Below are positions 7,948 through 52,921 of a stretch of DNA of 53,790 nucleotides, in pieces. Within the stretch, counting starts at the first letter, position 1; every line of letters starts with the position of its first letter. Below the pieces are notes generated by a model that was not told where the DNA came from, searched no databases, and worked only from the letters and a program-made list of their open reading frames with translations. The position numbers were made by a program, and so were the translations under genes. The stretch covers positions 1-53,790 of IMG/VR virus record IMGVR_UViG_3300045988_119356; one strand, 5' to 3'. Source of the DNA: a virus.

Positions 7948-7961
7948 AATTAACTTGATAA

Positions 7962-33344: not shown

Positions 33345-33363
33345 TTTTCAAATCCTCAAAACG

Positions 33364-33822
33364 TTAATTCCATTCTCTATAATTTAAAACTGCATCGATA
33401 GTTTTTACTGAAACATTAAATTCTTCAGCTAAAATTTTTCTATCTTCTAAACATCTTCTTCTAATGTTTTCAGCTTTCTTATAGTTTAATTTTATTTTTG
33501 AAGTTTTTTGTGAATTTTCACGTATAGTTACCCAACGACAATTAGATGGTTCGTAATTTTTATTGTTATCAATTCTATCTATGGATAAGCCTTTTTTCCA
33601 ACCATTAGATAGAGCCCATTCCGCAAAACTGGCGAAACTTAGCCATTCGTCACAAATTTTTATACCTCTACCACCATATCTATAATATTTAGGACTTTTA
33701 GGATTTAAACATCTTTGTTTCATATTAGTCCATGAATTATAGAGATTTCTGTCCTTACCTTTACAACAAAAACCGGTTTTATAATTACCGTTGTTTTCTC
33801 CGTAAAGCACGCCTCTTTTCAT
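33364..33822 (-). CDS. HNH homing endonuclease
   Basis: C..PK...Y.YGGRGI..C.EW and the IDRIDNNKNYEPSNCRWVT...EN HNH signature. Confidence 0.7.
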   Translation of the reverse strand: MKRGVLYGENNGNYKTGFCCKGKDRNLYNSWTNMKQRCLNPKSPKYYRYGGRGIKICDEWLSFASFAEWALSNGWKKGLSIDRIDNNKNYEPSNCRWVTIRENSQKTSKIKLNYKKAENIRRRCLEDRKILAEEFNVSVKTIDAVLNYREWN

Positions 33823-33851
33823 TCAAAAAACTCCGTAAGAATTGGTAATAA

Positions 33852-33879
33852 ATCGGCAGACTTTGACCGGTCTGCCAGC
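33852..33879. repeat. 28-nt hairpin element ATCGGCAGACTTTGACCGGTCTGCCAGC, copy 1
   Basis: Identical to 48829-48856. It contains GGCAGAC/GTCTGCC arms and a GACCGGTC core. Confidence 0.8.
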
Positions 33880-33896
33880 GGTTGTCAACATTAGGA

Positions 33897-34808
33897 TTAA
33901 AAAGGAATCCTATCGTTAATCAATGTGCTAAACGGTTGACCTTGTTGTTGTGCAGCTTGAGGCATAGCCATAGGGGCGGCCGCACTCGCAACAGGTTGGG
34001 TAAAACCCTGCATTGCAGCTGGTGCAGGCATCGATTGAACACCTTGAGCATTGTTAAGAAAGTCATAAGCCGGAGCTGGCATTGGAGCCGGAGCAGGTTG
34101 AGCTGTCGGCATTTGCGCAGGCATTGCAGCCGGTTGAGCCATTGGCATTTGAGCTGTTGCAGGTGCAGAACTAATCGGAGTTAAGGACGCACCGGCAGGA
34201 AGTGGGTGAGATGCACCACCAAACATTGCCATTGGGTCAGCACCACCAGAACCTTTAATTTCAGTTCCGTAACCAACTAATTCATAGCCGTTCGGATTCC
34301 AGTAAATACCACCGTCTTTTTCATTGTGTGCGGTAATTGTGAGGTTGGCAACTACATAGTCACCACATTTGACTTCGTTTGCTTCAACTTTACGATAAGC
34401 GCCGTTTTCAAATTTGAAAGTTCCCGGTAAGAAAGCGCTTGTACTTACTTTTACAATATAACAACCCGGATAACCTTCGCGAGTGTTATAAGGTACTTGT
34501 GAACCTTGCGGACAAGACGGGCTATCACCGTTAATAACTTTCCATGCAAAACGGGACATTTCACATTGATCTGGGTGCACATTTCCATATTGCGGATAAA
34601 CTTTCGCAACTTCTTGCAAAATATACGGCCAAACTTTTTCAAGAAATTCTTGTTTGTTGTAAGCAATTGAAACACGATTTTCTTTTCTCGGTGTACCGTC
34701 AGCGTTAAGTTTTTTCTGTTTGGTGTGATAATCAACAGCATCTTCCCAAGAGGTAGGATTACCGCTAACAATACGACCAACCGGCATGTTAAAGTTTTCA
34801 ATAGACAT
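33897..34808 (-). CDS. SSB-like protein (putative): a Pro/Gln/Met-rich linker ending in an NDRIPF tip
   Basis: The C-terminal disordered tail resembles the SSB ...DDIPF tip. It sits in the replication module. Confidence 0.4.
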   Translation of the reverse strand: MSIENFNMPVGRIVSGNPTSWEDAVDYHTKQKKLNADGTPRKENRVSIAYNKQEFLEKVWPYILQEVAKVYPQYGNVHPDQCEMSRFAWKVINGDSPSCPQGSQVPYNTREGYPGCYIVKVSTSAFLPGTFKFENGAYRKVEANEVKCGDYVVANLTITAHNEKDGGIYWNPNGYELVGYGTEIKGSGGADPMAMFGGASHPLPAGASLTPISSAPATAQMPMAQPAAMPAQMPTAQPAPAPMPAPAYDFLNNAQGVQSMPAPAAMQGFTQPVASAAAPMAMPQAAQQQGQPFSTLINDRIPF

Positions 34809-34828
34809 ATTAAATCTCCAATTTAAGG

Positions 34829-35071
34829 TTAAATATCCAAGGCTTTACGATAAGTTTCGAGTAAAAACTCTTTCTCGTCCCTATCAGCAGCGTTCATTTT
34901 GCGAAGTTTGATAATCTCACGCATGATTTTAGTATCAAAACCAGCGCTTTTGGCTTCTGCATAAATATCGTTGATATCCGATGTGATAGCAGATTTTTCT
35001 TCCTCGAGATGCTCGATTCGTTCAATTAAAGATAGCAATCTATTGCCATCAATTCCACCAACTTCTGACAT
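34829..35071 (-). CDS. GapR-like (DUF2312) nucleoid-associated DNA-binding protein
   Basis: LLSLIERIEHLEEEK..I..DI.DIYAEAKSAGFDTKIMREIIKLRKM resembles the GapR consensus. The start was chosen at the ATG 1 nt after the upstream stop, with an RBS AAGGAGA. Confidence 0.6.
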   Translation of the reverse strand: MSEVGGIDGNRLLSLIERIEHLEEEKSAITSDINDIYAEAKSAGFDTKIMREIIKLRKMNAADRDEKEFLLETYRKALDI

Positions 35072-35072
35072 A

Positions 35073-36149
35073 TTAAATCTCCTTCTTTCCAAACATTTTT
35101 TCAGCCATTTTGTTTTCATCAATAGCGACAAGCTTAAAACCGTTGTCAGGTCTATGAGTCATTGATTTTATTAACTCTTCCGGCACTCCGGCTTTTTTAG
35201 CCTGTGCAGGTGTCATTATTTTATCAACTCTCACGTCAACACCGGACATCATTTTAACAACGTCTGAGGTTATTCCGTCGTTCCAAGTCGTTTGACCTAG
35301 AGCCTGTTGTATTGAATATCCTTTTAAGCTTCCACCAGCTTTAAGACGATGTAAAGCTAAATCTTCGTAAGTCTCATAAGATTGTTTAATAATCTCTTGA
35401 GCGCGTTTAAGATTAGTTAACATCCATGTCAACCGTTCGTTGCTAATCTCGCTGTCAAAAGCTATTTCAGCAACGTCGATAGCGTTCATAGCTGCTATCT
35501 GAGCGGCCGGACATTGCGACAAACATTGACATTTATAACACTGCGAACCGCTACAAACCGTTGAGGATGGGTGAGATAAGACCTCGGACAGCTCTTGATA
35601 TAAAGACATCAATTCTGTATAATCAATTATCCAATTTCTAACAGTTCCTTGCGGATGAAATGGCCGAGGTTGAAAAATCATAAACGCTATTGTACACGGT
35701 TGAATATTATTTTTCTGACAGTAAGCAATAGCGTGACTTATTAACGTCCAGTTATTTTCAGGTTCAACAATTCGCCAACCATATTTAAGATCTGCGACTG
35801 TTAAAAGAGCAATATCGTGTTTAATACAGTCAGCACGTCCGCGAATTTCCCAACCGTTACCAGAATGTGAAGTATCTACTTCAACCTCACAATTCCCAGA
35901 GGTTGTAAACTCCAAATATTGTCGGCAGTATTCAACCATATCAGCGGTTATATACAATCCGTTCGGTGCTGTTTGCCCGATTAAATCCTCAGCGTTTGCA
36001 CCGTGATAAACTTGTTCACAAAGCCAGTGTGCAGCGTTTCCTTCGTCGGTTTGCTCGGTTGAAGGGTTGAAGGGCTCAATGCCCCCCAACGACTTATAAC
36101 CGTTGCAAGCCATAAAACGAGGTAATTCTGTGGCTGTTAAACTAAGCAT
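35073..36149 (-). CDS. PD-(D/E)XK exonuclease with a Cas4/RecB-like Cys cluster
   Basis: An N-terminal Cys, the ADLKYGW motif, and C-terminal CSGSQCYKCQCLSQC. Confidence 0.55.
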   Translation of the reverse strand: MLSLTATELPRFMACNGYKSLGGIEPFNPSTEQTDEGNAAHWLCEQVYHGANAEDLIGQTAPNGLYITADMVEYCRQYLEFTTSGNCEVEVDTSHSGNGWEIRGRADCIKHDIALLTVADLKYGWRIVEPENNWTLISHAIAYCQKNNIQPCTIAFMIFQPRPFHPQGTVRNWIIDYTELMSLYQELSEVLSHPSSTVCSGSQCYKCQCLSQCPAAQIAAMNAIDVAEIAFDSEISNERLTWMLTNLKRAQEIIKQSYETYEDLALHRLKAGGSLKGYSIQQALGQTTWNDGITSDVVKMMSGVDVRVDKIMTPAQAKKAGVPEELIKSMTHRPDNGFKLVAIDENKMAEKMFGKKEI

Positions 36150-36150
36150 G

Positions 36151-36849
36151 TTAGATGCCTTTTTTAGCTAATTCGTTAATGACAAACAGCATCGCGTTCT
36201 CATTATCACGCATTTCGAACATACCTTGATATGAAGTACCGAAAGTAGCGTTAACAGTGTTGAGAACTCCTTGCATATAGTTAGCTTCAATCAACTTGTT
36301 TGCGAGAGCATATTGCAACTTGTTTGAAAAAGTTTCAAACGTTGACGGTGCCGGAGCGGCAGGAGCTGGAGCAACTGGAGCCGGTGCAACTACTGGAGCA
36401 GGCGCAGCTACGGGAGCTTGAACCTGTTGAACGGGTACGAAAGCCTGAACCGGTGCTGGAGCAACCGGTGCCGGTGCAACTACCGGAGCTTGGACGGATT
36501 CAGGAATAGGTGCTGGAATTGGAGCATCTTCGGTCACCGGTTCAGCAGCTTCCCATTTGCCTAACAATTCAGCTTTAACAGAGTTGTAAACTTCGTCGCT
36601 AACACCACGACGACGTTGCCATACACCTTGAGCAGTCAATTTGTGATTTGAGCTGTGGATTCTTTCGTCCCACGGTAAACCTTCTTTGTCAAAATCCATA
36701 GTATTATCAATCGGCTCTTCGACAACATCATCAGTGCTAACAACAACCGGAGCGTTGGACGGGGTAATAACCTCGTCGATAACATTGTTCAAAACTTTAG
36801 CAACGGCCAACAACTCAACCGCCGTAATATCTTCTAATGTAATTTTCAT
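36151..36849 (-). CDS. Hypothetical protein with a long Pro/Ala/Val repeat linker
   Basis: 232 aa with (APV)n repeats between two folded regions. Confidence 0.45.
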   Translation of the reverse strand: MKITLEDITAVELLAVAKVLNNVIDEVITPSNAPVVVSTDDVVEEPIDNTMDFDKEGLPWDERIHSSNHKLTAQGVWQRRRGVSDEVYNSVKAELLGKWEAAEPVTEDAPIPAPIPESVQAPVVAPAPVAPAPVQAFVPVQQVQAPVAAPAPVVAPAPVAPAPAAPAPSTFETFSNKLQYALANKLIEANYMQGVLNTVNATFGTSYQGMFEMRDNENAMLFVINELAKKGI

Positions 36850-36934
36850 TGTAAAATCCTTTGTTATAATGTTGACAATTTACATTAACTGTTTTACATT
36901 GTTGTTAAATAAAATGCAAGAGGAAAATTTAAAA

Positions 36935-37510
36935 ATGTCAAAATTTGTTATCAAAAGTGAGATTTTATCAAGGTTTTCAAAGCTTTCAACAATTCGTTTA
37001 GAAGTTAAAAACAGCAGACAGTATATTATAGGTTATAATAAATATGTCGCCTGTTTACAGTATCTAGGAGAGTGCGAAGATTCGGACGAGGTTATTTATA
37101 TTGGATTTAACGAAAAATCGTTAGAAAATTTGCGATTCGAGCTGAGTATTGGTAGTGATTATATTATTGAAACGAATCCTGAATTAGCTTTAGCAACGGT
37201 GACAACTTCTTTAGGTAGCAAATACGACAACTTTGTTTACTGGATGGACGAGGATGAAACTGATAACTGGTCATCATGGTTTACCGAATTGAACGAAACT
37301 GTCGGATTTATGTACTGGGATTTGTATCAAGTACAAACATTGTTTGAGTGCAGCCCGTCCGGTGAGATAATTTTCCCAGAACATATAAACGCTACCAAAC
37401 CTGTTATCGTTGTTGACGCTAATAACACCGAATGGGTTGGCGTGTTTATACCTCGTTCGGACAGCGACAAACCTCTTAAACCAGCAACATTACCGGAGTG
37501 GATGAAATGA
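36935..37510 (+). CDS. Hypothetical protein (first gene of the rightward replication block)
   Basis: RBS AAGAGGAAAA. The longer 36686 start in the track is rejected because it runs antisense into the neighbouring gene. Confidence 0.5.
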   Translation: MSKFVIKSEILSRFSKLSTIRLEVKNSRQYIIGYNKYVACLQYLGECEDSDEVIYIGFNEKSLENLRFELSIGSDYIIETNPELALATVTTSLGSKYDNFVYWMDEDETDNWSSWFTELNETVGFMYWDLYQVQTLFECSPSGEIIFPEHINATKPVIVVDANNTEWVGVFIPRSDSDKPLKPATLPEWMK

Positions 37511-37878
37511 GTGATAGATTAAAATTTAGAGTTTGGGATAAATACTTTGAACGTTATTGGACAGATGAACAGGTTGAAAATAACATACAATGGCTTTTAT
37601 ATCCTGATAACGAGAATATTGAAAATGTTATAATCGAACAGTGCACCGGGTTGAGAGATAAAAACGGCAAGCTCATCTATGAGGGAGATATTATAAAATC
37701 AATGGTATATACTGTAAACATGAAGGTTATATACTGTATCGAAGAAACTTTTTTCGGATTAAAATATTCTCACAATGACGATAACAGATGCAGTGCAGCT
37801 ATGCCCTCATCGGAAGAAATTGAAGTCATCGGAAACATTCACGAAAATCCGGAGTTCTTAAATGCTGATAACGCTTAG
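37498..37878 (+). CDS. Hypothetical protein
   Basis: 126 aa, coupled. Confidence 0.45.
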   Translation: MDEMSDRLKFRVWDKYFERYWTDEQVENNIQWLLYPDNENIENVIIEQCTGLRDKNGKLIYEGDIIKSMVYTVNMKVIYCIEETFFGLKYSHNDDNRCSAAMPSSEEIEVIGNIHENPEFLNADNA

Positions 37879-39517
37879 AGATTATCAACAGAACGTTGTC
37901 AACGGAATTTATAACAGTTGGCAGAACGGGAATCGCAATGTATGTGCGGTGTTGTCAACAGGCGGTGGCAAGACTCAAATATTTTCCTCAATAGTTGCAG
38001 ACTTTACAAAACAAAATAGACATTGCGCGATTGTTGCACATCGAAACGAGTTAGTATCTCAAGCATCTTGTACACTTGCTCAGTGGAATATTAAACATCG
38101 TATAATTGCTTCTAATAGCACTATCGCTCAAATAACTCGTAAACACCGTGCTAAGTTCGGTAAATCGTTTGTATCACCGACAGAGCTTACAGCGGTCATT
38201 GGTGTTGATACACTTATTAGCCGTTACGAATCGTTGAAAGCTTGGGCGGAACAAATAAGTTTATGGGTTCAGGATGAAAATCAACACCTTTTGAAAAATA
38301 ATAAATGGGGTAAAGCTATCGGTATGTTTAAAAATGCTTATGGTTTGGGTGTTACAGCTACCCCATGTCGCGCGGATGGTCAAGGAATCGGTAGTATTGC
38401 TGATGGTTTTATGGATGATATGGTCATCGGACCGACAATGCGTTCTTTAATTGACCGAGGATTTTTAGCGGATTATGAAATTCTTTGCCCTAAATCTGAC
38501 TTAAAAGTCGACGATTCGCAATTATCTGCAAACGGCGATTGGTCAAATCAAACACTTCGCAAAGCCGCTAAAAAATCTAAAATTGTCGGTGATGTTGTGC
38601 AAAATTATATCAAATATGCTTTCAATCGTAAAGCTATTGTATTTGCTACCGATGTTGAAACCGCTAATGAAATTTCAAAAGATTTTAACGAACATGGAAT
38701 AAAAGCGGTATCGTTGAACGGAACTTCACAAGCATCGTATCGTGAACAGTCGTTAGAATTGTTTTACGCTGGTGATATTAAAGTTCTTGTCAACGTTGAC
38801 CTCTTCGACGAAGGGTTCTCGGTCGATGATTGTGATGTGGTTATTATGGCACGTCCTACCGCTTCTCTCGGTAAATACCTACAAATTTGCGGCCGCGCTT
38901 TACGCCCGGCACCTGGAAAAACCGCTCTTATCATTGACCACGTTAGCAACGTTATCAGACATGGTTTGCCGGATATGCCTCGTGAGTGGTCGCTTGATAG
39001 ACGGCAAAAAAAAGCTAAGCAGGTTAAAGACCCTGATGAAATCGAGCTTACAGTTTGCAAAAATTGTTTGAAACCCTATGAAAAGTTTAGAACTGTTTGC
39101 CCGTATTGCGGTACCGAACCACCACTGCCAGAACCACGTTCTCGCAGTATTGAAATGGTTGAAGGTGATTTAATATTGCTTGACCGTGCAGCTTTGGAAC
39201 GTATGCGTCGCGGAACGATGTTAGAAGCTCCAGGAAGTGTTGCCGAGAGAGTTGCCAAAGTTGCCGGACCGATAGCCGCTAAAGGTGTGGCGAATCGGCA
39301 AATAGAAAAAATAGCAGCCCAAGGAGAGTTGAAAGATGCTATTGCTCAGTGGGCCGCAATCGAACGTTCTAGGGGTTTCAGTGACAGAGAGATTTATAAG
39401 CGTTTTTATCTGTCAACAGGTATGGACGTGTTGACAGCGTTGGACGGATCGAGAAGCCGTCAAGATTATTTAACAACAGCAGAAAGAGTTAGGGGATGGT
39501 ATAAAAATGACAGATAA
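37862..39517 (+). CDS. SF2 DNA helicase with a C-terminal zinc ribbon
   Basis: Walker A STGGGKTQ, a DExH-like VQDENQH, and CKNCL...CPYCG. Confidence 0.7.
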   Translation: MLITLRDYQQNVVNGIYNSWQNGNRNVCAVLSTGGGKTQIFSSIVADFTKQNRHCAIVAHRNELVSQASCTLAQWNIKHRIIASNSTIAQITRKHRAKFGKSFVSPTELTAVIGVDTLISRYESLKAWAEQISLWVQDENQHLLKNNKWGKAIGMFKNAYGLGVTATPCRADGQGIGSIADGFMDDMVIGPTMRSLIDRGFLADYEILCPKSDLKVDDSQLSANGDWSNQTLRKAAKKSKIVGDVVQNYIKYAFNRKAIVFATDVETANEISKDFNEHGIKAVSLNGTSQASYREQSLELFYAGDIKVLVNVDLFDEGFSVDDCDVVIMARPTASLGKYLQICGRALRPAPGKTALIIDHVSNVIRHGLPDMPREWSLDRRQKKAKQVKDPDEIELTVCKNCLKPYEKFRTVCPYCGTEPPLPEPRSRSIEMVEGDLILLDRAALERMRRGTMLEAPGSVAERVAKVAGPIAAKGVANRQIEKIAAQGELKDAIAQWAAIERSRGFSDREIYKRFYLSTGMDVLTALDGSRSRQDYLTTAERVRGWYKNDR

Positions 39518-39716
39518 ACAACAGTTAATCGATGAGTATGCAGAATTTTTAATCTATAACGGTTTTGATATTGAAGGTATGGGTTATCAACTCAAGGGAT
39601 TAAAAGTTGAAAAGGTTAATAAAGAGGATTTACAAGAGGCTTTTGAGCTTATCGACGAGATAAATAAAAAAACTCAAGAATTTAAGTCTAAGTTTTACGA
39701 GGTGCAAGATGGCTAA
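39507..39716 (+). CDS. Hypothetical small protein
   Basis: 69 aa. Confidence 0.35.
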   Translation: MTDKQQLIDEYAEFLIYNGFDIEGMGYQLKGLKVEKVNKEDLQEAFELIDEINKKTQEFKSKFYEVQDG

Positions 39717-39900
39717 CATAATTGAAGCTGTAATTGTTATTATAGTAGTTACGATTTTAGGTTTTTTGGCAATAGATAAGGTTATATCTGATAATATAAA
39801 CAAAAGCAAAGAATACGAAAAGCGACTTGAAGAATGTTTTAAACAAGAACCGAGAACCAAGGACTGCGAATTTGTTTTATGGAGGCACGAGAATAGGTGA
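39709..39900 (+). CDS. Small membrane protein
   Basis: 63 aa with an N-terminal TM segment. Confidence 0.35.
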   Translation: MANIIEAVIVIIVVTILGFLAIDKVISDNINKSKEYEKRLEECFKQEPRTKDCEFVLWRHENR

Positions 39901-40121
39901 GGTGCATGATGACAATAGATGAGTTTAAGAAAAACATAGCTCCGTATATGCAAAAAGGCTATGTTTTTATGAACGAGAACGGCGGTTGGATGTATTGCCA
40001 AAACAGGCCAGAATTATTTTCCGATAAAGGTTATTGGTCTGACAATGGATTGGAGGATTGGCTTCCGTTCGACATCGAGCCTGTGGATAACTGGCAAGAA
40101 TCATTAATTGAGGTAGTGTAA
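39897..40121 (+). CDS. Hypothetical small protein
   Basis: 74 aa. Confidence 0.35.
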   Translation: MRCMMTIDEFKKNIAPYMQKGYVFMNENGGWMYCQNRPELFSDKGYWSDNGLEDWLPFDIEPVDNWQESLIEVV

Positions 40122-40291
40122 TGAGCGATAAAGAAAAATTAATAATAATATCGGATTTATCTTTTGCGGCTCGTAATTATATATCGGATGCTATCAGAGG
40201 GGTAATAGAAACCGATGAAGCTTTAAGAGTTGCCGATTCGTTATTAACAGCCGTAGTTTATGTGAAAAATTATGAGGTGCCCAATGCGTGA
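40121..40291 (+). CDS. Hypothetical mini-protein of 56 aa
   Basis: ATGA-coupled. It is not in the ORF track because it is under 60 aa. Confidence 0.25.
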   Translation: MSDKEKLIIISDLSFAARNYISDAIRGVIETDEALRVADSLLTAVVYVKNYEVPNA

Positions 40292-40673
40292 GTCAGCAGT
40301 AACATCACACGTCCGTTTAGCGGCTGCAAAACTTAACGTAACACTTTGGCGTAATAACTGTGGTGGCTTTTATGATAACACCGGGCGATTTATTAGATAT
40401 GGACTGGGTTCAGAAGCTCAGTTAGCATCTAGCGACTTTATCGGCATCCGCCCGGTGCTCATAACGCCTGATATGGTCGGTCAAGTATTAGGGGTGTTTA
40501 CAGCCGTTGAAATGAAAACAGAGGGTTTTAAATTTAACAAAAATGATAAACACCTCTTGAATCAAAAAAATTTTATTGATATTGTTAACCAGTATGGAGG
40601 GTTTGCAGGATTTGCAAGCTCGGTTGAAGATTTTTACAGGATTATAAGATATGCAGAGAACAACAAACGTTAA
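40284..40673 (+). CDS. VRR-NUC domain nuclease
   Basis: SDFIGI...VFTAVEMK matches the PD-(D/E)XK VRR-NUC pattern. RBS GAGGTG. Confidence 0.6.
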   Translation: MRESAVTSHVRLAAAKLNVTLWRNNCGGFYDNTGRFIRYGLGSEAQLASSDFIGIRPVLITPDMVGQVLGVFTAVEMKTEGFKFNKNDKHLLNQKNFIDIVNQYGGFAGFASSVEDFYRIIRYAENNKR

Positions 40674-40932
40674 AGGCGAACAGACAAAAGAGGAAATTCT
40701 AAAAGCTGGTTTGGAGCTTTGGCCGAATGTTACACCGTCCACGATTGCAGCAAAATTAGGTATTACGCACGCTGCTGTTTTGTATCATTTTCCGAACATT
40801 AAAGAAGCAGTAGCTCAATATGCTGTTGAAACTGATTGCAGCCCTGTAATTGTTCAGATGCTGGCAACTAATCATAAATTGGTTAAAGATATGCCGGCCG
40901 CTGAGCGTTTACGGCATTTTAGTTCGTTATAA
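40651..40932 (+). CDS. Hypothetical protein
   Basis: 93 aa. Confidence 0.35.
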   Translation: MQRTTNVKGEQTKEEILKAGLELWPNVTPSTIAAKLGITHAAVLYHFPNIKEAVAQYAVETDCSPVIVQMLATNHKLVKDMPAAERLRHFSSL

Positions 40933-41001
40933 GGCTGGGAGTGGATGCGATGAGAGATCACCGGTGCTTATTCGCCTTAATATTCACACCATCCCCGATT
41001 T

Positions 41002-41571
41002 TTAAATCCATATAATTTCCGGTCGACCTGTAAAATCTCGTTCCCATATAAACCAAGCGTAACAAACAGCGCTACTCTCATTTTTCGGAAAAAGCCCGTT
41101 TTTGCTGGACGGGATACGTTCGCTAAAAACACAAACGTAACGTGGTGGATGTTTTTCGAAAAATTTACGACGTGTTGCCGATTCTAAAAATCTTATATTG
41201 AGAAAATGACAAGCTATCGGTGCAATCTGTATGGACTTCTCAACGAACTGTAACGCTGCGGAATAAGGCGGATTTGTGATAACAGCATCAAACCCGAGAT
41301 TGTCGTAAGCGGTTGGCTGCAAGAAGTCAACGCCACCAACACCATAACCTCTGTCGATAAGGTCGGTAGAGATGACGGTGTGGCCGTAAATTTGCAACGG
41401 TTCGGAGAGGTGGCCGCGCCCTGCGGCGCACTCCCAGATAAATTTACCGCCGTTCTCCCAACCGAGAACTTTAAGAAGCGGTGGAATTGCGGACGGGTGT
41501 GTGGCGTAAAAATCATGTTCTTCACGCTCTTCACCCTTTTTACGATGTAAACCGTGCATGTTACCTGTCAT
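41002..41571 (-). CDS. DNA N6-adenine methyltransferase (NPPY motif)
   Basis: VITNPPYSAAL (motif IV) and ECAAGRGHL (AdoMet-binding site). Confidence 0.65.
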   Translation of the reverse strand: MTGNMHGLHRKKGEEREEHDFYATHPSAIPPLLKVLGWENGGKFIWECAAGRGHLSEPLQIYGHTVISTDLIDRGYGVGGVDFLQPTAYDNLGFDAVITNPPYSAALQFVEKSIQIAPIACHFLNIRFLESATRRKFFEKHPPRYVCVFSERIPSSKNGLFPKNESSAVCYAWFIWERDFTGRPEIIWI

Positions 41572-41592
41572 TTTCCCACCTTAACTTTCTTA

Positions 41593-41793
41593 TTATTTAT
41601 AAATTGTTAAAAGTGTTATAATGCTATCAAAAGCATCTTTGTCCCAATGGTCTTTTTTAAGATATTCAAGTCTTGAAATAATACCAGCTTGTTCAAAATT
41701 ACGTTTATAGCAAGCGAAAGCTTCTTTAATGTATTCATCTTTTAATTTTCTAAGTTCTTCATCTGTCAGTATGTTTAAACCAAGTATTTTCAT
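41593..41793 (-). CDS. Hypothetical small protein
   Basis: 66 aa. Confidence 0.35.
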   Translation of the reverse strand: MKILGLNILTDEELRKLKDEYIKEAFACYKRNFEQAGIISRLEYLKKDHWDKDAFDSIITLLTIYK

Positions 41794-42210
41794 TTATACC
41801 TCCTTTAACCACTCCGGTTTGTTTCGATTCGTCCATTTATGCACTGTTGGATTGCTCCGATAACGCTCTAAAAGCCGTTGACAGTTGAGAGCAATATCAG
41901 CTTCGGTAACAGTGTACCATTGGAAATCGTTGTTTTTAACATTTTTATAACAATAACTAAATAAATCGTCATAAGGATAATTGACTTTGAATCCTCTAAA
42001 CTCCATTTCATCACATATCTCTTTATATCTTCTCAATAAATATGCGCTATGATGTCTTGCCCACTTCATGTGCCCTTTACCAAGCAGATAATGCTCAGGT
42101 GCGTCGTCAGTGTTTATAAGTTGTTTGATACATCTAGGCAACTCGCGATATTCCGCAAGTAGCCATAAATCTGACAACCATCGAACCGGTATAACATTAA
42201 CTCTTGTCAT
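41794..42210 (-). CDS. denV: Pyrimidine-dimer DNA glycosylase (T4 endonuclease V / DenV homologue)
   Basis: MTRVNVIPVRWLSDLWLLAEYRELPRC closely parallels the DenV N-terminus MTRINLTLV...LMAEYRELPRV. The size, 138 aa, also matches. Confidence 0.8.
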   Translation of the reverse strand: MTRVNVIPVRWLSDLWLLAEYRELPRCIKQLINTDDAPEHYLLGKGHMKWARHHSAYLLRRYKEICDEMEFRGFKVNYPYDDLFSYCYKNVKNNDFQWYTVTEADIALNCQRLLERYRSNPTVHKWTNRNKPEWLKEV

Positions 42211-42226
42211 AAATCCTCTCAACGTT

Positions 42227-42313
42227 TGGTGGGCGCAATCAGAATCGAACTGATACTCCGCAATTGGAACAAGATTTTAAGTCTTGCGTGTCTACCATTT
42301 CCACCATGCACCC
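42227..42313 (-). tRNA. tRNA-Leu(TAA), type II with a long variable arm and encoded CCA
   Basis: Hand fold of the reverse complement. Acceptor GGGTGCA/TGCGCCC; anticodon arm CAAGA-CTTAAAA-TCTTG; 15-nt variable arm; T-arm ATCAG-TTCGATT-CTGAT. Confidence 0.7.
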
Positions 42314-42448
42314 TCAACTCTATCAACACCCTACGACAGCTTATAATACTTGTCGACACATTTTTACACACATTAACACGAAATTATACTTGACAGGTGA
42401 TATAAGGGGTTGTAGGGTTTTGTTATCTTATTATTTACGAGGTGAGAT

Positions 42449-42634
42449 ATGGATAAAAAAACTTTAAATCTTACAGAGTTAGCCAAGTACATTGGTGTTG
42501 GCAGAAAAACTCTCTATACCATGATACAGGACGGGCGATTCCCCGTTCAACCAATTAAAGGTTTAGAACCTAAACGTTGGAGTGTTGAAAAAGTTAACGA
42601 ATGGATAGAGAGTAAAGAGAATGATAACAATTAA
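42449..42634 (+). CDS. AlpA/Xis-like HTH DNA-binding protein
   Basis: LTELAKYIGVGRKTLYTMIQDGRFP resembles AlpA-family HTH proteins. Confidence 0.55.
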   Translation: MDKKTLNLTELAKYIGVGRKTLYTMIQDGRFPVQPIKGLEPKRWSVEKVNEWIESKENDNN

Positions 42635-44159
42635 TGAATTATTTTCAGGATTAGGAGCACAGATTGCTGCTTTCAAACGTCTTAATATACCTTGTGAAGT
42701 AGTAGGTATTTCAGAAATTGATAAATATGCTATACAATCTTACGAGGCTATAAACGGTCCTACGCGTAATTACGGCGATATAACACAAATCCCTTATTTG
42801 GATTATGCGGATTTATGGACATACTCTTCGCCCTGTCAGGATTTTTCAACGGCCGGAAAACAAAAAGGTATTTATAACGCCGACGGCAGTTTAACACGTT
42901 CGGGATTGTTAAAACACGTTGAAAGATTGCTTGAAACGTCTGTGATGTTAGGCAATCAACCTAAATATTTACTTATGGAAAACGTTAAAGGTTTAGTAAG
43001 TAAAAAATTCAAACCTGATTTTCTTAAATGGTTAGATAAATTAGAACAGTTGGGATATAATAACTATTGGCAAGTTTTGAACGCTAAGGACTATGGTATC
43101 CCTCAAAATAGAGAACGTGTTTTTGTTGTTAGCATCCGTAAAGATGTAGATACCAAAGGTTATAAATTTCCCTCACCTGTACCGCTTGAGAAACGCTTAA
43201 AAGATATGCTCGAACCTTGGGTGGACGTAAAGTATTATTTGAGTGATGATAAGGTTGAGAAATTTGCTAACGCTTTAAATAAAAAAATAGAAAATCAAGA
43301 TATTAGTTATTGTATTGATGCTAACTATTGGAAAGGAACAACACCACAACAATTTTTAAATAAAAATCGCAGACAATTAGTTAAAGAAGTTAGTAACACC
43401 ATTCGTTGTGGTGGTGGTGGTAGCTTGGACGGTAAGCATACATGGGATGTTGTTGTTGAACCTTTTATAGCTGATGATACACAAGGTTTTGACGGTGTTA
43501 GATATTACGATAATTATTCACTGACATTAAGAAGTGAGCGTTCAGGATTAAAAGTGGTTGAACCCTTACAAATAAAAGAAGCAACCCAAAAAGGATATGC
43601 TGAGGCTTATGAGTATGATAGTGTTTCGCTCGATCAGCCTAATAGCAAGACAAGAAGAGGTAGAGTTGGAAAGCAAATATCTAATACTTTGACTTGTTCT
43701 TGTAATATGGGGGTAGTTGAGCCTAAAGTTATTCAAGTTGGAAATATTGTCAACACCGGCAACTGGGATAACCCTCAGAGAGGGCGAATCTATTCGCCCT
43801 CTGGAATCAGCCCCGCTCTCAATACGGTAGGTGGTGGAGGATTAGAACCTAAGATTTTTGAAGAAGGTGTCGGTCTTAATCCTTTATCGAGAAAATTAGA
43901 ATTTAACGGATTTAAAGAAAACTCTCCAAGTTTAAGAGCAACCGATTATAAATGCCCTCATTGCTACTCGGATGGTTACCGTATTCGCAAACTTACGGCA
44001 AGGGAATGCTGGCGTTTGATGGGGTTTACCGACATTGAATTTGATTGTGCAAAATTGTCTGGTGTATCAAACTCACAGCTTTATCGCCAGGCGGGAAATT
44101 CAATCGTGGTAGATGTTTTAGTCGGTATCTTTAAGGAGTTGTTCGATGACAGATTTTAA
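42621..44159 (+). CDS. DNA (cytosine-5) methyltransferase
   Basis: Motif I LFSGLGA, motif IV SSPCQDFS, motif VI ENVKGL, and C-terminal motifs. Confidence 0.85.
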   Translation: MITINELFSGLGAQIAAFKRLNIPCEVVGISEIDKYAIQSYEAINGPTRNYGDITQIPYLDYADLWTYSSPCQDFSTAGKQKGIYNADGSLTRSGLLKHVERLLETSVMLGNQPKYLLMENVKGLVSKKFKPDFLKWLDKLEQLGYNNYWQVLNAKDYGIPQNRERVFVVSIRKDVDTKGYKFPSPVPLEKRLKDMLEPWVDVKYYLSDDKVEKFANALNKKIENQDISYCIDANYWKGTTPQQFLNKNRRQLVKEVSNTIRCGGGGSLDGKHTWDVVVEPFIADDTQGFDGVRYYDNYSLTLRSERSGLKVVEPLQIKEATQKGYAEAYEYDSVSLDQPNSKTRRGRVGKQISNTLTCSCNMGVVEPKVIQVGNIVNTGNWDNPQRGRIYSPSGISPALNTVGGGGLEPKIFEEGVGLNPLSRKLEFNGFKENSPSLRATDYKCPHCYSDGYRIRKLTARECWRLMGFTDIEFDCAKLSGVSNSQLYRQAGNSIVVDVLVGIFKELFDDRF

Positions 44160-46428
44160 CCTTACAACAGCTTATATCACGTCCTTAACCGGCAACCCTA
44201 ACACCGAGTGCGATTGGCGTATTATTAACGACCGCAACGCCGGTGAAATGGGCATTAACCTTCGCGGGTCGCTCACAACCGTTGCAGCTCAATTACAAGC
44301 TTACAACCAACAAGGTTATGGTATTTTTATGACTGTCAACGCTATGAACCCGACAGGCCCTCGCACACTTGAAAACGTTGCTTATACCCGCGCACACGTT
44401 GTTGACCTTGATGATATTATAAGCGCTCAGGACAGTTACAATAGAGCTGTGCAGTCCAATATGCCCCCGCATTTTGCGGTACAATCATCACAAGGAAAAT
44501 TTCACCTTTATTGGCTGGTAGAACCTTATAAAGATAATGATTTTTATAGCTTACAACAACGCAAACTCGTACAACTTTATAATTCAGACCCAAATGTTAT
44601 TGATGCCACTCGAATCCTGCGTGTTCCTGGTTTTTATCATAACAAGCGCGAACCGCAACTTGTAACCTGCTGGGGTATTCACAACGGTCCGAGATATACA
44701 GCGCAACAAATTGCCAATAACCTGGCCACAATCAATATTGTGTCTGTAGGTAGTAAACGTTCGGAGCTCGGTGATCCGAAATTAGCCGCTCCAAACATAA
44801 ATTTGCTCGTGTATGCGTTAAACACCATCGACCCGAATACACTTACTCGCGATGAGTGGATGGCAACGTCAGCAGCTTTTAAACAAGCCGGATGGTCTTT
44901 GACGGATGAAAACACCTTGCATAATTTATGGTTGCAATGGTGCGAAAAATATAAAGACGACAACAAGTCTGAAAATCTTAAAATGTGGGCGTCGTTCAAA
45001 GATACTCAGGTTGGTTGGTCGCGTTTTTGTCGTTTGGTGCCGGAAGTGTTGGCAATACAATATTTCGGTCAACCGTCGACAACCACTTCACCTGCACCAG
45101 CGACAACGCCAGAACCATGCGAGATGAATAACCTGCCGGAAATTCTGGACGCTACTGCAAAACAAATATGGTTTAAAAACTGTTTCTTTGTTGAAAGCGA
45201 AGGCAAAATTTTCTCACCGACTGGACGCTTTATGAATCAAGTACAATTCAACGGTCGTTACGGTGGTAAAGAGTTTACACTTAAAAATAACGGCGGAAAA
45301 CTAACCGACGAAGCGTGGAAAGCTGCTTTGCGTTCGGTTGATTGGTGCATACCAAAAGTGGACCATTGTCGATTCTTACCACAAGAAGCAAGTTTTAGCG
45401 TGATATTAGATGATATGGGGCGTAAAGGTTTAAACACTTATATTCCGGCAAAAATTAAAACTGTTGAAGGTGATATCAGCCGTTGGAAGGATTATTTAAC
45501 AAGAATTTTCAATACACCTGAGGATATTAAAATCTTTGAGGATTATGTTGCACATTGCATTAAATTTCCCGGTTGGAAAATTCCGTGGTCTGTGCTGTTA
45601 CAGTCCGCAAAAGGTATCGGTAAACAAATGATAAGCGATATTATCAAACACGCTGTCGGTGAGCCTTATACGTATCAACCGGACGCTGAAGAACTTGTTA
45701 GTGGTGTCAGTCAGTTTAATGGCTGGATGCGCAATAAATTGATGATTTTGGTTGATGAAGTGCGAGTTGGTGACCGTAATGACCTTATGAACGGGTTAAA
45801 AACAATTATTACCGACCGTCGAATCGCAATTGAATCGAAAGGTGTCGATCAGGAAATGGAGGATAACGTTGCTAACTGGATATTCTTCAGTAACTTTAAA
45901 GACGCTTTCCCGATTGATGAAAACGAACGCCGTTATTGTATTTTTTACAGTAAATTGCAGTCCGCTCTTCAAATTGAAGAAGCTGGTTTGAATAAAGACT
46001 TTTTTGATGGTATGTATCATTGGCTTGAGTGCGAACAAGGTTTTGAAAAACTCGCTTGGTATTATTTGCATTATCCGATTGAGCGCGGTTCATTACCACA
46101 CAGAGCTCCACACACATCATCTTATGAAGAAGTTATACGTATCGGTCGTAGCCCGTTACGTGTTATACTGGACGATAAAATTAACGCTGGTGAGCGTGGT
46201 TTTCGTGGCGGGTATGTCAGCTATGTTATGTTCCAGAAAGCTGTTGCTGAGAGTTCTATGCGCAATAAACCGCTTGAGCATACTCTTAAATCAATCATCG
46301 AAGGAAAAGGTTATCATGAGCTTGGATATACAAAAGCGCCTGTTCCTGGTGAAGATTTGAAACAACCAAGCTTAATATTCGGTTTGAAGGGTTTAAGTGT
46401 TGATGGATATGAAGGAGCGCAAAATTGA
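44146..46428 (+). CDS. Primase-helicase (D5/SF3-like)
   Basis: 760 aa. Walker A KGIGKQ, Walker B ILVDEV, and an N-terminal primase-like region. Confidence 0.55.
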   Translation: MTDFNLTTAYITSLTGNPNTECDWRIINDRNAGEMGINLRGSLTTVAAQLQAYNQQGYGIFMTVNAMNPTGPRTLENVAYTRAHVVDLDDIISAQDSYNRAVQSNMPPHFAVQSSQGKFHLYWLVEPYKDNDFYSLQQRKLVQLYNSDPNVIDATRILRVPGFYHNKREPQLVTCWGIHNGPRYTAQQIANNLATINIVSVGSKRSELGDPKLAAPNINLLVYALNTIDPNTLTRDEWMATSAAFKQAGWSLTDENTLHNLWLQWCEKYKDDNKSENLKMWASFKDTQVGWSRFCRLVPEVLAIQYFGQPSTTTSPAPATTPEPCEMNNLPEILDATAKQIWFKNCFFVESEGKIFSPTGRFMNQVQFNGRYGGKEFTLKNNGGKLTDEAWKAALRSVDWCIPKVDHCRFLPQEASFSVILDDMGRKGLNTYIPAKIKTVEGDISRWKDYLTRIFNTPEDIKIFEDYVAHCIKFPGWKIPWSVLLQSAKGIGKQMISDIIKHAVGEPYTYQPDAEELVSGVSQFNGWMRNKLMILVDEVRVGDRNDLMNGLKTIITDRRIAIESKGVDQEMEDNVANWIFFSNFKDAFPIDENERRYCIFYSKLQSALQIEEAGLNKDFFDGMYHWLECEQGFEKLAWYYLHYPIERGSLPHRAPHTSSYEEVIRIGRSPLRVILDDKINAGERGFRGGYVSYVMFQKAVAESSMRNKPLEHTLKSIIEGKGYHELGYTKAPVPGEDLKQPSLIFGLKGLSVDGYEGAQN

Positions 46429-47180
46429 GTAATATAGAATTATACTGGGGCGACTGTCTTAAAATCATGGACGGATTAATTGCAGACGGTGTTAAGGTTG
46501 ATGCAATTATTACTGACCCTCCGTATGGTACAACAGCGTGCAAGTGGGACAGCGTGATTCCGTTTGAAGAGATGTGGAAAAGGTTGAAAGCTTTAAGAAA
46601 GGATAATACACCTATCGTTTTATTCGGGAGTGAACCTTTTAGTTCTTATTTGAGAATGTCTAATATAAAAGAATATAAATATGATTGGTATTGGGAAAAA
46701 ACTCAAGCAACCGGTTTTTTTAATGCCAAAAAACAACCTATGAGGTGTATAGAAAACATAAACGTTTTTTATAAAAAACAATCTTTATTTAATTTTATAA
46801 AAACTTTCGGGCATAAGCCGATAAATTCATTTACTAAATATCTGAGAACAGTTAATAAAACAGAAGTTTACGGTAAATGCAATAAAGAAATTTCAGGTGG
46901 TGGAAATACAGATAGATACCCAAGACAACTTTTAACTTTTTCAAGTGATAAACAAAGTAATTATTTACACCCCACCCAAAAGCCTCTTGCTCTTATGGAA
47001 TATCTTGTAAAAACCTACACAAACGAGGGTGATACAGTGCTGGACTTTACAATGGACTCCGGTACAACCGGTGTAGCATGCAAGAATCTCAACCGCAATT
47101 TTATCGGTATAGAGTTAGACCTCAATTACTATATGATAGCACAGGAGCGGATAAATAAAAACCCCTCTCAACGCCAGTGA
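46425..47180 (+). CDS. DNA methyltransferase (N6-adenine or N4-cytosine, DPPY motif)
   Basis: IITDPPYGT (motif IV) and C-terminal SGTTGVA (motif I) show the beta-class motif order. Confidence 0.8.
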   Translation: MSNIELYWGDCLKIMDGLIADGVKVDAIITDPPYGTTACKWDSVIPFEEMWKRLKALRKDNTPIVLFGSEPFSSYLRMSNIKEYKYDWYWEKTQATGFFNAKKQPMRCIENINVFYKKQSLFNFIKTFGHKPINSFTKYLRTVNKTEVYGKCNKEISGGGNTDRYPRQLLTFSSDKQSNYLHPTQKPLALMEYLVKTYTNEGDTVLDFTMDSGTTGVACKNLNRNFIGIELDLNYYMIAQERINKNPSQRQ

Positions 47181-47442
47181 ACATCGAGAGGGGTACAAAC
47201 GTTCGAGGATTCGAAGAACATTTATGTAATTATATTAACACGTGTTAACGATGTTGTCAAGGTTAAAATTGTGCGGTATCGCCATTCATTCGGAAAATGA
47301 ACTGTTACCTGAAACTTGAACCTTTGTAGGCTGGTCGATTATAGCACCCGCACAATGCTTCGAAAGAAGTAGTAACAGGATAGAATTAAGCTGGAATATT
47401 TTATCTCCCTACGCCCTCCAGCTCCGCTCTATCTACGTTATT

Positions 47443-47607
47443 TCAAGCCGTAAGGGAAGGCTCAAAATTTTTGCAATCATCAAAACTAGCATAGGACTGG
47501 CGGTTTGGGTTGTTTTTAAGCCATTCTTTCTCTTCGTCTGTTAACTTCCGCCAACATTTTGCAACGCACAGGCACGTGCAAACCGTAAAATCAAGGCTTC
47601 TACTCAT
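47443..47607 (-). CDS. Cys-containing mini-protein of 54 aa (tentative)
   Basis: ORF MSRSLDFTVCTCLCVAKCWRK...; under 60 aa. Confidence 0.2.
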   Translation of the reverse strand: MSRSLDFTVCTCLCVAKCWRKLTDEEKEWLKNNPNRQSYASFDDCKNFEPSLTA

Positions 47608-47842
47608 TGCTTTGCTCCCATGCAGATATTGGTAATGGCTCGCCTCGTTTATTTGATTCGCACCAAAGCCACTCCCATTTTTTAGCTTCGTTTTTTATAA
47701 TCTCTATTGCCTCAGGTGATATTTCGGCTTTTCCCAATTCAAGAAAATATAAGACAGATGACCAAGCGGCATATCTACCATATAATCCGCCTAAATTAAA
47801 ATTTTTAATTTTTTCTTCGTCATATATTCCGGTACTCATCAT
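47600..47842 (-). CDS. Hypothetical protein
   Basis: 80 aa, Trp-rich, with an RBS GAGGAATGA. Confidence 0.4.
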   Translation of the reverse strand: MMSTGIYDEEKIKNFNLGGLYGRYAAWSSVLYFLELGKAEISPEAIEIIKNEAKKWEWLWCESNKRGEPLPISAWEQSNE

Positions 47843-47924
47843 TCCTCACTTTCACCGATAACTGTGTTGATATAGGTTAACAGGTTTTCCATTCCTTCAA
47901 ATACTGATATATCCTCAATAGGAT

Positions 47925-48205
47925 TTACTCCTTAAATAAAACTTTAATAACTGTTTGCATTTGCTTAGGTGTTTTGCCGGTGCATATAAGCTCGTGATAT
48001 TCGTCCCAGTTATTAAAATGTATATCTCCGGTTCTAGAAAATATCATCTGATTTATTTCTACATACTCGTCGACATATTCGCCTTCGTTGTGAATGTATA
48101 TATCATCTTTATCGAAAGATTTTTAACCCATTCAACTAACTCTTCCCAGGTCATCTCGGGCTCAAAAGCTAAATTGTCCTCGTAGTCAGGCGCATTGTTA
48201 CTCAT
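47925..48205 (-). pseudogene. Small gene split by a frameshift at a homopolymer (AAAAA), or a sequencing error
   Basis: ATG 48205 reads MSNNAPDYEDNLAFEPEMTWEELVEWVKNLS... and stops after 48 codons. Another frame continues as ...DDIYIHNEGEYVDEYVEINQMIFSRTGDIHFNNWDEYHELICTGK... to about 47925. Confidence 0.3.
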
Positions 48206-48801
48206 TAATCCATCTCCGTTATTAAATCTAAACCATCATCGTCCAGACATTTACCATTAATATCGTACTTTCGAAGTTTTTTATCACCTTCAAATACGAC
48301 ATAATATTCATCCTCATCAGCAGCGAATACGATACCTATTTTATTATCGGCAGTTACATATTTTTTAGAAACTTTTAACTTGACCGGAACAGGCTGTAAA
48401 CAATAATAACCATCTTTATCTGTTAGATCAACGGCACTGTTGATAAATAACGGTATATTGGTAGACGTATAAGTAACAATCAATCCATCGATAAGTTTAA
48501 ATCTTTTACCGGTTGAAAAACTAATAACCGTTTTACCTTTATTCAAGCTATCGATGATAGCAACTTCATCTAATAAAGATACCTTTTCAAACTTACCTTG
48601 CACTGTTTGTGTAATGGTATCCGTTGTTTGAGCGATATACATATCGTAAAAATTTTTCAATTTTGTTGCGGTTTTGGTACGTAATTTTTTATCATTTTTA
48701 TAATTGTATAACGCATTTACAGAAATACCTATTTTGTCAGCTAATTCGTGAATATTTAAACAGTTTTCATCAGCATATTTTATAAAATCATCATATTGCA
48801 T
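48205..48801 (-). CDS. HTH-domain protein (putative regulator)
   Basis: N-terminal NIHELADKIGISVNALYNY looks like an HTH. The start is placed at the second Met with an RBS GAGGAG. The 28-nt hairpin element lies about 30 nt upstream. Confidence 0.45.
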   Translation of the reverse strand: MQYDDFIKYADENCLNIHELADKIGISVNALYNYKNDKKLRTKTATKLKNFYDMYIAQTTDTITQTVQGKFEKVSLLDEVAIIDSLNKGKTVISFSTGKRFKLIDGLIVTYTSTNIPLFINSAVDLTDKDGYYCLQPVPVKLKVSKKYVTADNKIGIVFAADEDEYYVVFEGDKKLRKYDINGKCLDDDGLDLITEMD

Positions 48802-48828
48802 TTTATTACTCCTCAAAACGTTTGTAAC

Positions 48829-48856
48829 ATCGGCAGACTTTGACCGGTCTGCCAGC
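48829..48856. repeat. 28-nt hairpin element, copy 2
   Basis: Identical to 33852-33879. Confidence 0.8.
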
Positions 48857-48865
48857 AATTATTAA

Positions 48866-52582: not shown

Positions 52583-52921
52583 ATTTCGATTCTCCCTTTT
52601 TTAATGGTATTTTACAAACTTGTTAAACAATGTCAAGATTTATTTGTGTGATGGTACAGGATTAAAACCAAATAAAAGCTTTTTTAATTATTTTAGCGTT
52701 TTTACCCCAATATAATTTCCTCATACCGGATATAGACGCGTTCGGGCCTACACTCGGGCAATTTTCAAGCTCCGGGCACTTATCATCTTTTTTTTAAAAT
52801 AAAAGTCTGTCCCGGTTCAATTTTATTTTTCAAATCTTTAAGCGTGTATAACATTTTTCGAATCCTCTCTATTTATTGTTTATATTATATTTATAACACA
52901 TTTTAAAATTGTTGACAACAA

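Follow-up and report, generated by a model that had tools for sequence, protein, structure and literature searches.

Why should a virus genome carry the same short sequence, letter for letter, at two distant places? The question is raised by IMG/VR virus record IMGVR_UViG_3300045988_119356, a stretch of 53,790 nucleotides (hereafter the window, at its full length) whose plus strand holds two exact copies of the 28-mer ATCGGCAGACTTTGACCGGTCTGCCAGC, at 33852-33879 (site 1) and 48829-48856 (site 2). An earlier account of this DNA, made from its letters alone and called here the sequence-only reading, had drawn attention to the identical copies and judged that a perfect repeat of this kind is not expected by chance. 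Both statements hold: the chance expectation is 0, no match arose in 100 dinucleotide-preserving shuffles, and the window contains no third copy with up to 3 mismatches. The repeat is explained by membership in a family of elements spread across many phages, and is thus not private to this genome as that account had implied. Judging from the changes in pairing across the family, the element is a compact H-type RNA pseudoknot of ~30 nt and not a plain hairpin.

An unfiltered scan of the window with the family's covariance model scores site 1 at 54.2 bits and site 2 at 42.8 bits and finds no further copies there, the next-best match reaching 11 bits. The sequence-only reading had reasoned that many degenerate copies genome-wide would mark a generic terminator; by this model the window holds none, and the element is abundant in other phages. 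An 18-nt core of the repeat recurs in 61 IMG/VR loci, with the same gene-relative orientation in all, an additional 5' CCGCU and usually a T run on the 3' side. Together with the shuffles, this recurrence rules out chance or an assembly artifact as the source of the repeat.

Both sites lie between tandem, co-directional minus-strand genes, and not between convergently packed genes as had been described. Site 1 falls between the stop codon of an open reading frame (ORF) at 33897-34808 and the ATG, at 33822, of an HNH endonuclease gene; site 2 falls between the stop codon of an ORF at 48866-49990 and the start of an HTH-protein gene, which is ATG 48801 and not TTG 48858, a start overlapping the element. 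Read along the transcribed (minus) strand, the repeat is CCGCU-GGCAGAC-CGGUCAAA-GUCUGCC, and the element in transcript sense is GCUGGCAGACCGGUCAAAGUCUGCCGAU. The functional unit is offset from the 28-mer, occupying 33854-33882 and 48831-48859 with three extra bases on the 5' (high-coordinate) side. The upstream stop codon lies 14 nt before the pseudoknot at site 1 and 6 nt before it at site 2; this sense orientation, just past stop codons, bears out the idea of a specific element acting with the minus-strand genes. No tRNA or transfer-messenger RNA was found at the two sites.

The clues to the pseudoknot were a conserved 5' flank CCG, a loop start CGG and an A-rich loop end, all otherwise unexplained. 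In the fold common to the family, a helix of 4 bp (S1) joins the 5' flank N-C-C-G to loop bases 1-4, C-G-G-N; a single base (loop L1; C, sometimes A) separates the flank from a helix of 7-8 bp (S2); there is no linker; and a loop of 4-5 nt with an AAA end (L3) completes the structure. At site 1 (33854..33882, minus strand), S1 is formed by ACCG (33882-33879) and CGGU (33869-33866), L1 is the C at 33878, S2 is an 8-bp stem of UGGCAGAC (33877-33870) and GUCUGCCG (33861-33854), and L3 is CAAA (33865-33862), with a hairpin energy of -12.9 kcal/mol and a z-score of about -3. Site 2 (48831..48859, minus strand) is the weaker copy: its S2 and loop are the same, and its S1 is AUUG/CGGU, with two G.U pairs where site 1 has two C-G pairs. 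The palindromic GACCGGTC core emphasized by the sequence-only reading turns out to be an accident of the loop variant in the window, since loops differ in other family members, and its simple hairpin gives way to the pairing described here.

The case for S1 is built on covariation. When flank position 1 and loop position 3 were both left unconstrained in a scan, the pairs recovered were C-G (165), G-C (12), A-U (3) and U-A (2), with zero mismatches in true members. Scans that freed flank positions 2 and 3 returned CTG/CAG, CGG/CCG, GGG/CCC, CCC/GGG, ACC/GGT and GCC/GGC in several independent contexts; the few remaining matches are unpaired, sit in GC-rich context and have no U-tract, which is consistent with chance. 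The fourth S1 pair, between the base before the flank and loop base 4, is present in 160 of 198 instances, whereas 5000 shuffles gave 94 +/- 6 and never more than 115. By a formal count on an alignment picked independently of S1, all 4 of 4 pairs show changes on both sides and 94% of cells are paired, a result reached by 0 of 500 shuffles; slid registers also fall far below it.

For S2, double changes occur at 4 of 7 pairs and 99% of cells are paired, again with 0 of 500 shuffles reaching the result. The covariation is found in the upper part of the helix (GGCACCC/GGGUGCC, GGCAGAG/CUCUGCC, GGCACAC/GUGUGCC). The lower pairs G-C, C-G and A-U show no variation, an invariance that is partly imposed, as is that of base U5, because the search patterns fixed U5 and the lower stem. 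Because G.U pairs are frequent, the structure appears to be one of RNA, on the sense strand. The loops, with an L1 of 1-2 nt across the 7-8 bp of S2 and an L3 of 4-5 nt across the 4 bp of S1, fit both helices at once when judged by known pseudoknot geometry, and the fold matches the geometry of classical compact H-type pseudoknots. Two other pairings were discarded: a pseudoknot of upstream UUGAC with loop GUCAA at site 1 has too short a connecting loop and is missing in other members, and a stem extension pairing G3 with +3 was superseded because G3 pairs with the loop.

How widely is the element shared? A loop-free pattern, CGCTGGCAGAC-N3-12-GTCTGCC, matches at least 120 loci, and IMG/VR phage contigs of marine, rumen and gut origin hold no fewer than 190 unique instances of the motif, a count that sets a lower bound on family size. 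The consensus of about 150-200 unique instances is C-CGCT-GGCAGAC-CGG-N(1-5)-A-A/T-A-GTCTGCC-R-C-Y-TTTT, and positions outside it carry essentially no information. The contigs that carry it are 5-195 kb long, originate from marine, rumen and gut samples and have unrelated neighbors; beside marine members, the encoded proteins show no more than 30-40% identity to those of any cultured phage. The GenBank phages in which we found the motif are a few uncultured gut contigs and a single cultured one, Xanthomonas phage XAJ2, where a copy at about 32,480-32,510 of KU197014.1 (L265 1498-1541) has a GCG/CGC variant of the pseudoknot helix and lies in an unannotated intergenic gap upstream of genes for a hypothetical protein, a recombinase and a single-stranded DNA-binding (SSB) protein. 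This copy weakens the notion of an alphaproteobacterial host-specific element that the GapR gene of the window had suggested. In a scan of 185,579 species genomes, which covered the commonest loop variant, that variant appeared at 2 single sites, both on small (8-54 kb) contigs of metagenome-assembled genomes (MAGs), one of which is a relative of the window phage. With no array copy of this variant in those genomes, a solitary CRISPR-repeat mimic (RNA anti-CRISPR) was rejected, and with only 2 sites so was a repetitive extragenic palindromic (REP) or IS200-IS605-type hairpin repeat.

We found no description of the motif. Rfam 15 gives no match to either window copy at gathering cut-offs, no relevant match to site 1 up to E = 10, and no match up to E = 0.1 to 8 family-bearing loci with at least 15 copies, and a full-text search by element sequence returned unrelated primers only. 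The motif may be among the ~8,500 candidate structured RNAs of a 2023 IMG/VR catalog (PMC10690425), possibly as one of the 1,241 that it predicts to be terminators. As for a protein partner linked to the element, BLAST of window ORFs against family-locus ORFs returned only close relatives and a helicase in 4 loci.

The position of the element among genes is also regular. A sense ORF of at least 100 amino acids ends 0-29 nt upstream in 97 of 151 unique instances (antisense strand, 13), with the gap between stop codon and element peaking at 5-14 nt, and an ORF starts 10-39 nt downstream in 71 of the 151 (antisense strand, about 18). A U-tract (at least 5 T in 8 nt) follows about 64% of instances, and 61-65% at any distance to the next gene, compared with 3% of control positions; because it is independent of that distance, the tract belongs to the element and not to the leader of the next gene. 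TTTAA or TTAAA is found within 25 nt in 34% of instances versus 2% of background, and the U-tract persists with the next gene far away. In the window, site 1 has a moderate U-rich tail, AUUUAUUACCA (33843..33853, minus strand; 5 T in 8), that is terminator-like in a consensus scan; the tail of site 2, AUGUUACA, is a poor U-tract, and the same scan does not flag this site.

Among 67 non-redundant upstream genes, about 13-15 encode SSB proteins of at least four families (gp32-like, two Gp2.5-like groups, phrog_9002 and Enc34-like) and about six encode major head proteins; others encode tail tube, Hc1 and ParB-like proteins and many small threonine/glutamate-rich membrane proteins. The family profile contains no conserved promoter, and a promoter stands behind the element only at some loci. 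By inspection, we rejected a sigma-54 or extracytoplasmic function (ECF) promoter reading of CTGGCA, which has the wrong spacing to any -12 element and lies in a variable region, and a selenocysteine insertion sequence (SECIS) or readthrough signal, given that all three stop codons are used and more in-frame stops follow in the examples seen.

The element coincides with a break in synteny. For upstream genes that are 60-80% identical, downstream sequence is homologous in 7% of pairs versus 73% on the other side of the gene, and for those 80-90% identical the figures are 53% versus 99%; the pairs are not independent, and one gp32-like group dominates them. Site 1 illustrates such a border. Its upstream gene (33897..34808, minus strand) encodes a Gp2.5-like single-stranded DNA-binding and annealing protein of 303 amino acids (phrog_7011, E = 2.9e-48) with a tblastn match to the Gp2.5-like SSB protein of Rhizobium phage P106B, the closest cultured relative of the window phage. 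Downstream on the same strand follow the HNH endonuclease gene (33364..33822, 152 amino acids; phrog_3377, E = 2e-41), an ORF of 114 amino acids (33000-33344) and the DNA polymerase gene (30966..32993, by tblastn), which is conserved and bounds, on the right-hand side, the variable cassette beginning at site 1. One relative (L001) shares 89.5% identity with the window as far as 4 nt beyond site 1, where 844 bp of the window (the HNH gene and the 114-amino-acid ORF) are replaced by 1000 bp starting with a tRNA-like gene; homology is back about 10 nt before the DNA polymerase start. In a second (L002) the HNH gene is present, and one C-to-U change makes a G-C pair of the element G.U. A third (L070) is 100% identical over 38 nt around the element and 70-76% identical in the flanks, and has a 2.3-kb insert; in it, too, a tRNA-like gene replaces the HNH gene. 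In a fourth (L208) the HNH gene is absent, and SSB gene, element and DNA polymerase gene stand directly in series. The tRNA-like gene (L001 3664-3796, with an equivalent in L070) sits exactly at the HNH spot of the window and has clear acceptor, D and T arms, while its anticodon region is longer by about 69 nt; it goes uncalled by ARAGORN and scores 20.8 bits with the Rfam tRNA model, whose cut-off is 29. Separately, several marine contigs (L009 3105-3219; L098; L169) have a tRNA gene within about 10 nt after the element.

The history of the HNH gene can be read from a leader motif with a ribosome-binding site (RBS). Its form AACGUUUUGAGGAuuug (33349..33365, minus strand) lies right after the HNH stop codon, which runs directly into AACGUUUUGAGGA, and before the 114-amino-acid ORF, and has 3 mismatches to the leader of site 2. 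There the motif, AACGUUUUGAGGAGUAA (48806..48822, minus strand), stands in uninterrupted ("empty-site") form between the pseudoknot and the HTH start; in L001 it lies behind the tRNA-like insert. From these placements, site 2 looks like the uninterrupted form of site 1. The duplicated unit comprised about 50 nt, element plus leader, and the HNH gene was later inserted exactly between the two at site 1, a recent insertion behind the SSB gene of the window genome. The footprint of HNH mobility proposed by the sequence-only reading survives in part, with the relatives and site 2 placing the insertion between element and leader.

Site 2 is also a border. Upstream of it lies a gene for an SPFH/Band 7 protein (48866..49990, minus strand, 374 amino acids; Pfam Band_7, E = 9e-14) and downstream the gene for an HTH-domain protein (48205..48801, minus strand, 198 amino acids), with weak HTH_3 and HTH_26 matches and a match to the phrog_8 transcriptional regulator (E = 4e-5). 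Homology with three relatives (L006-L008) ends at the SPFH stop codon, after which they carry a different hairpin or no hairpin; in P106B the SSB gene is followed by a strong hairpin unlike the element. Such hairpins in relatives suggest that structured RNA at these positions is constant and that the motif of the window is one interchangeable solution. The unrelated hairpins of these distant relatives at the same two junctions are very stable (-37.9 kcal/mol in P106B, L004 4938-5010; -17.9 kcal/mol in L006 5056-5110) and have no clear U-tract.

What, then, does the element do? With modest confidence, we favor a pseudoknot-capped intrinsic terminator that is also a 3'-end stabilizer. In this reading the element is a cis-acting RNA that is transcribed with the minus-strand genes and folds as the compact pseudoknot, one helix of which would be the terminator stem, leading to partial intrinsic termination behind highly expressed genes (here those for the Gp2.5-like SSB and SPFH proteins). 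The compact 3' cap left after termination would shield the upstream mRNA from 3' exonucleases. Partial termination would set the expression ratio between the conserved upstream gene and whatever follows, and, with near-same sequence at many phage junctions, the element also coincides with the border of cassette exchange. Since the next gene often begins within 40 nt and lacks a promoter, termination at many copies has to be partial, and because no phage RNA polymerase gene was detected among the scanned window ORFs, the host polymerase probably reads the element. Each copy offers a stable GC-rich stem-loop in sense orientation downstream of a gene. Among the roles offered by the sequence-only reading, a terminator or RNA-processing structure is the one that agrees with the sense orientation, the proximity to stop codons, the U-tract in most members and the G.U pairs, although not as the plain hairpin then envisaged.

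Several points weigh against this reading. We infer termination, and stabilization of the 3' end by the pseudoknot, from form alone. The U-tract is poor at site 2 and moderate at site 1, about a third of family members have no good one, and in about half of instances the next gene begins 10-39 nt downstream, leaving no promoter room. An ordinary terminator can do without a pseudoknot and without sequence conservation. The near-invariant GCA/UGC, L1 base and A-rich loop are unexplained by termination alone, which suggests tertiary contacts or a bound factor, and so marked a link to SSB genes may point to a more specific role. A more tentative possibility, to which we assign clearly lower confidence, is therefore worth stating: the element may be an uncharacterized pan-phage structured RNA whose junction (L1 base, GCA/UGC, A-rich loop) is recognized by a near-universal partner, tying cassette read-through or translation to replication status or RNA decay. 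Candidates for this partner would be the phage's own SSB protein, a host 3' exonuclease or RNA polymerase. If this were true, the element would be a portable "expression valve," exchanged between very different lineages with the genes that it borders.

A recurrent SSB neighborhood and a resemblance to the operator of T4 gene 32 make a protein-responsive translational operator the most interesting rival. The pseudoknot would nucleate the phage SSB or another RNA-binding protein, which would spread over the U/A-rich stretch and the downstream RBS and so couple downstream expression (DNA polymerase, RecA-like and others) to free SSB protein. The element does stand behind SSB genes of at least four unrelated families far above chance; pseudoknot, U/A-rich tract, RBS and AUG follow one another within 10-39 nt in about half of instances; TTTAA/TTAAA is enriched as described above; and in L208 nothing comes between SSB gene, element and DNA polymerase gene. 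The T4 operator likewise combines a ~28-nt pseudoknot, UUAAA/UAAA repeats and an RBS, and the segG homing endonuclease gene adjoins it (PMC535899). However, that operator is 5' of gene 32, whereas the element is 3' of the SSB gene, stays with its upstream gene while the downstream gene changes, also occurs behind capsid, tail tube and small membrane-protein genes, and has a U-tract even with the next gene more than 100 nt away. We consider this operator unlikely. Much less probable still is a small switch in which a metabolite, Mg2+ or a ribosome at the stop codon would set pseudoknot formation and so tune the terminator. Such a switch would draw on the compact H-type fold and invariant junction (L1, GCA/UGC, A-rich L3), which are preQ1-I-like, on a terminator stem that is itself one pseudoknot helix, and on the distance of 5-14 nt from the stop codon, which puts S1 inside the footprint of a terminating ribosome. 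The neighboring genes, however, have no common metabolic theme, no Rfam riboswitch matches, and no alternative (antiterminator) pairing is conserved.

Other explanations place the function in DNA. The element could be a short patch of shared homology for cassette exchange, PeSL-like, its RNA structure being secondary. The strong synteny breakpoint exactly at the element, the identical motif in otherwise unrelated phages and the arrays of small genes, each with a copy behind it, in four loci (L028, L071, L079, L131) all fit this view, as does the precedent of PeSLs, which are conserved terminator/promoter motifs at indel borders (PMC4122927). The compensatory changes in both helices and the tolerance of G.U pairs nevertheless point to selection on RNA pairing and not on DNA identity, and the PeSL consensus is lineage-specific and includes a promoter, whereas the motif is cross-lineage and has no family-wide promoter. 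Homologous recombination, moreover, would hardly be efficient over about 27 nt of identity. We regard this explanation as rather improbable, and any effect on recombination may be a by-product of the element. An HNH homing target or its remnant, with site 2 (junction GTCTGCCGATGTTACAAACGTTTTGAGGAG) as the intact cut site and site 1 as one disrupted by the endonuclease gene, would account for an HNH gene lying exactly between element and leader, a pair contiguous at site 2 and, tRNA-like insert aside, in L001, and for the presence or absence of this gene among close relatives. We give it very little credence: the motif occurs in hundreds of phages with an HNH homolog in none of the flanks examined, a different insert (the tRNA-like gene) occupies the same point, and free-standing HNH enzymes often cut in a neighboring conserved gene and not at the insertion point. 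The least probable candidate is an operator or promoter in double-stranded DNA, either bound by the HTH protein behind site 2, as the sequence-only reading proposed for a shared operator, or using a TTGACA box directly 5' of site 1 (33883..33888, minus strand). An inverted repeat does adjoin the HTH gene. In all five aligned relatives, TGTTGAC(A/G)A (window 33883-33890) is kept 5' of site 1, including retention in L001, L002, L070 and L208 while the rest of the spacer diverges, and the box may be a candidate -35 of a weak promoter overlapping the element, with CAAAGU (CAAAGT in DNA) at 17-nt spacing inside it. Yet the arms lie anywhere from 7 to 14 nt apart, neither G.U pairs nor a helix joining flank and loop has any meaning in duplex DNA, the strand bias is strict, and no HTH homolog was detected in the family flanks examined; for the promoter, the -35 box is neither family-wide nor present at site 2, and the -10 candidate matches TATAAT at 3 of 6 positions.

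Our preferred reading, a terminator and stabilizer capped by a pseudoknot, would, if true, place the element among the most widely shared non-coding elements of unrelated tailed phages. It is a ~30-nt element, backed by covariation, at the junction of conserved core genes and exchangeable cassettes. As such it could serve as a simple marker for cassette borders in uncultivated phage genomes and as a candidate compact terminator/stabilizer part for engineering. It also raises the question of why a terminator-like element should be under sequence-level selection across hosts and environments, and the copy in Xanthomonas phage XAJ2 gives an experimental handle in a cultured phage.

The window has other features of its own. 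Its ends (1-55 and 53736-53790) are identical, and the assembly is thus circularly closed or terminally redundant, at about 53.7 kb; a human gut metagenome contig of 53,831 bp (ENA ERZ917862) is the same phage, with an identical HTH protein and the same neighbor genes. Ahead of the major head gene (8076-9227) and the major tail gene (12372-13130) stand repeated blocks of 41 nt (71% identical) and 45 nt (91% identical), at 7935-7975 with 8017-8061 and at 12232-12272 with 12311-12355, which resemble a late leader common to both genes; the 45-nt block contains the hairpin GGTGCG-CTTTTTTA-CGCACC. A 42-nt repeat at 967-1008 and 52880-52921 contains TTGACA-N17-TATAAA on the minus strand, and its copies are probably promoters of minus-strand early modules. 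Short repeats cluster between 51411 and 52662: a 21-mer (ATTTGTGTAATAGTACCGCAT-like) is present four times, 21-nt units stand three in tandem at 52347-52430, and a 55-nt repeat has copies at 51987 and 52203. They could be operators or an origin. The phage also encodes a GapR-like DNA-binding protein and two DNA methyltransferases (34829-35131; 42621-44159; 46425-47180). The GapR-like family is known mainly from Alphaproteobacteria and their phages, and the related contig L070 was binned with an alphaproteobacterial rumen MAG.

Our findings can finally be set beside known RNA systems. In topology and size class, the element resembles the preQ1-I riboswitch and luteovirus pseudoknots of the beet western yellows virus (BWYV) type, with which it shares a loop of 1-2 nt crossing the deep groove of a 7-8 bp helix, the lack of a linker and an A-rich loop in the minor groove of the short helix. 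It differs from them in having no sequence or Rfam match to them, no place upstream of a regulated metabolic gene and no slippery site. With the T4/RB69 gene 32 operator (PMC535899) it has in common a compact phage H-type pseudoknot of ~28-30 nt with a very short first loop, a link to an SSB gene and a homing endonuclease gene inserted next to it, and in part of its instances a U/A-rich unstructured tract followed by an RBS. The two are unrelated in sequence, and the T4 pseudoknot occupies the 5' leader of its SSB gene, whereas the element follows the SSB gene on the 3' side, both in the window and in gp32-like, Gp2.5-like and other SSB contexts; it is also multi-copy, occurs behind non-SSB genes and in most members carries a terminator-type U-tract. 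The PeSL cassettes of T4-type phages (PMC2839356, PMC4122927) are likewise short terminator stem-loop motifs, repeated in intergenic regions at the borders of indels and replacements. The element shares this location at indel borders, yet PeSLs are lineage-specific simple stem-loops coupled to a sigma-70 promoter, whereas the element is a cross-lineage pseudoknot with no built-in promoter of that type and no lineage-specific consensus. Intrinsic (Rho-independent) terminators found behind highly expressed phage genes share with the element a GC-rich stem, sense orientation just past the stop codon, a place behind capsid and SSB genes and, in most family members, a 3' U-tract; the window has ordinary examples at 9235-9258 and 47161-47194. 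Such terminators are conserved in form only, whereas the element keeps a near-same sequence of 27 nt across unrelated phages together with a covarying flank-loop helix.

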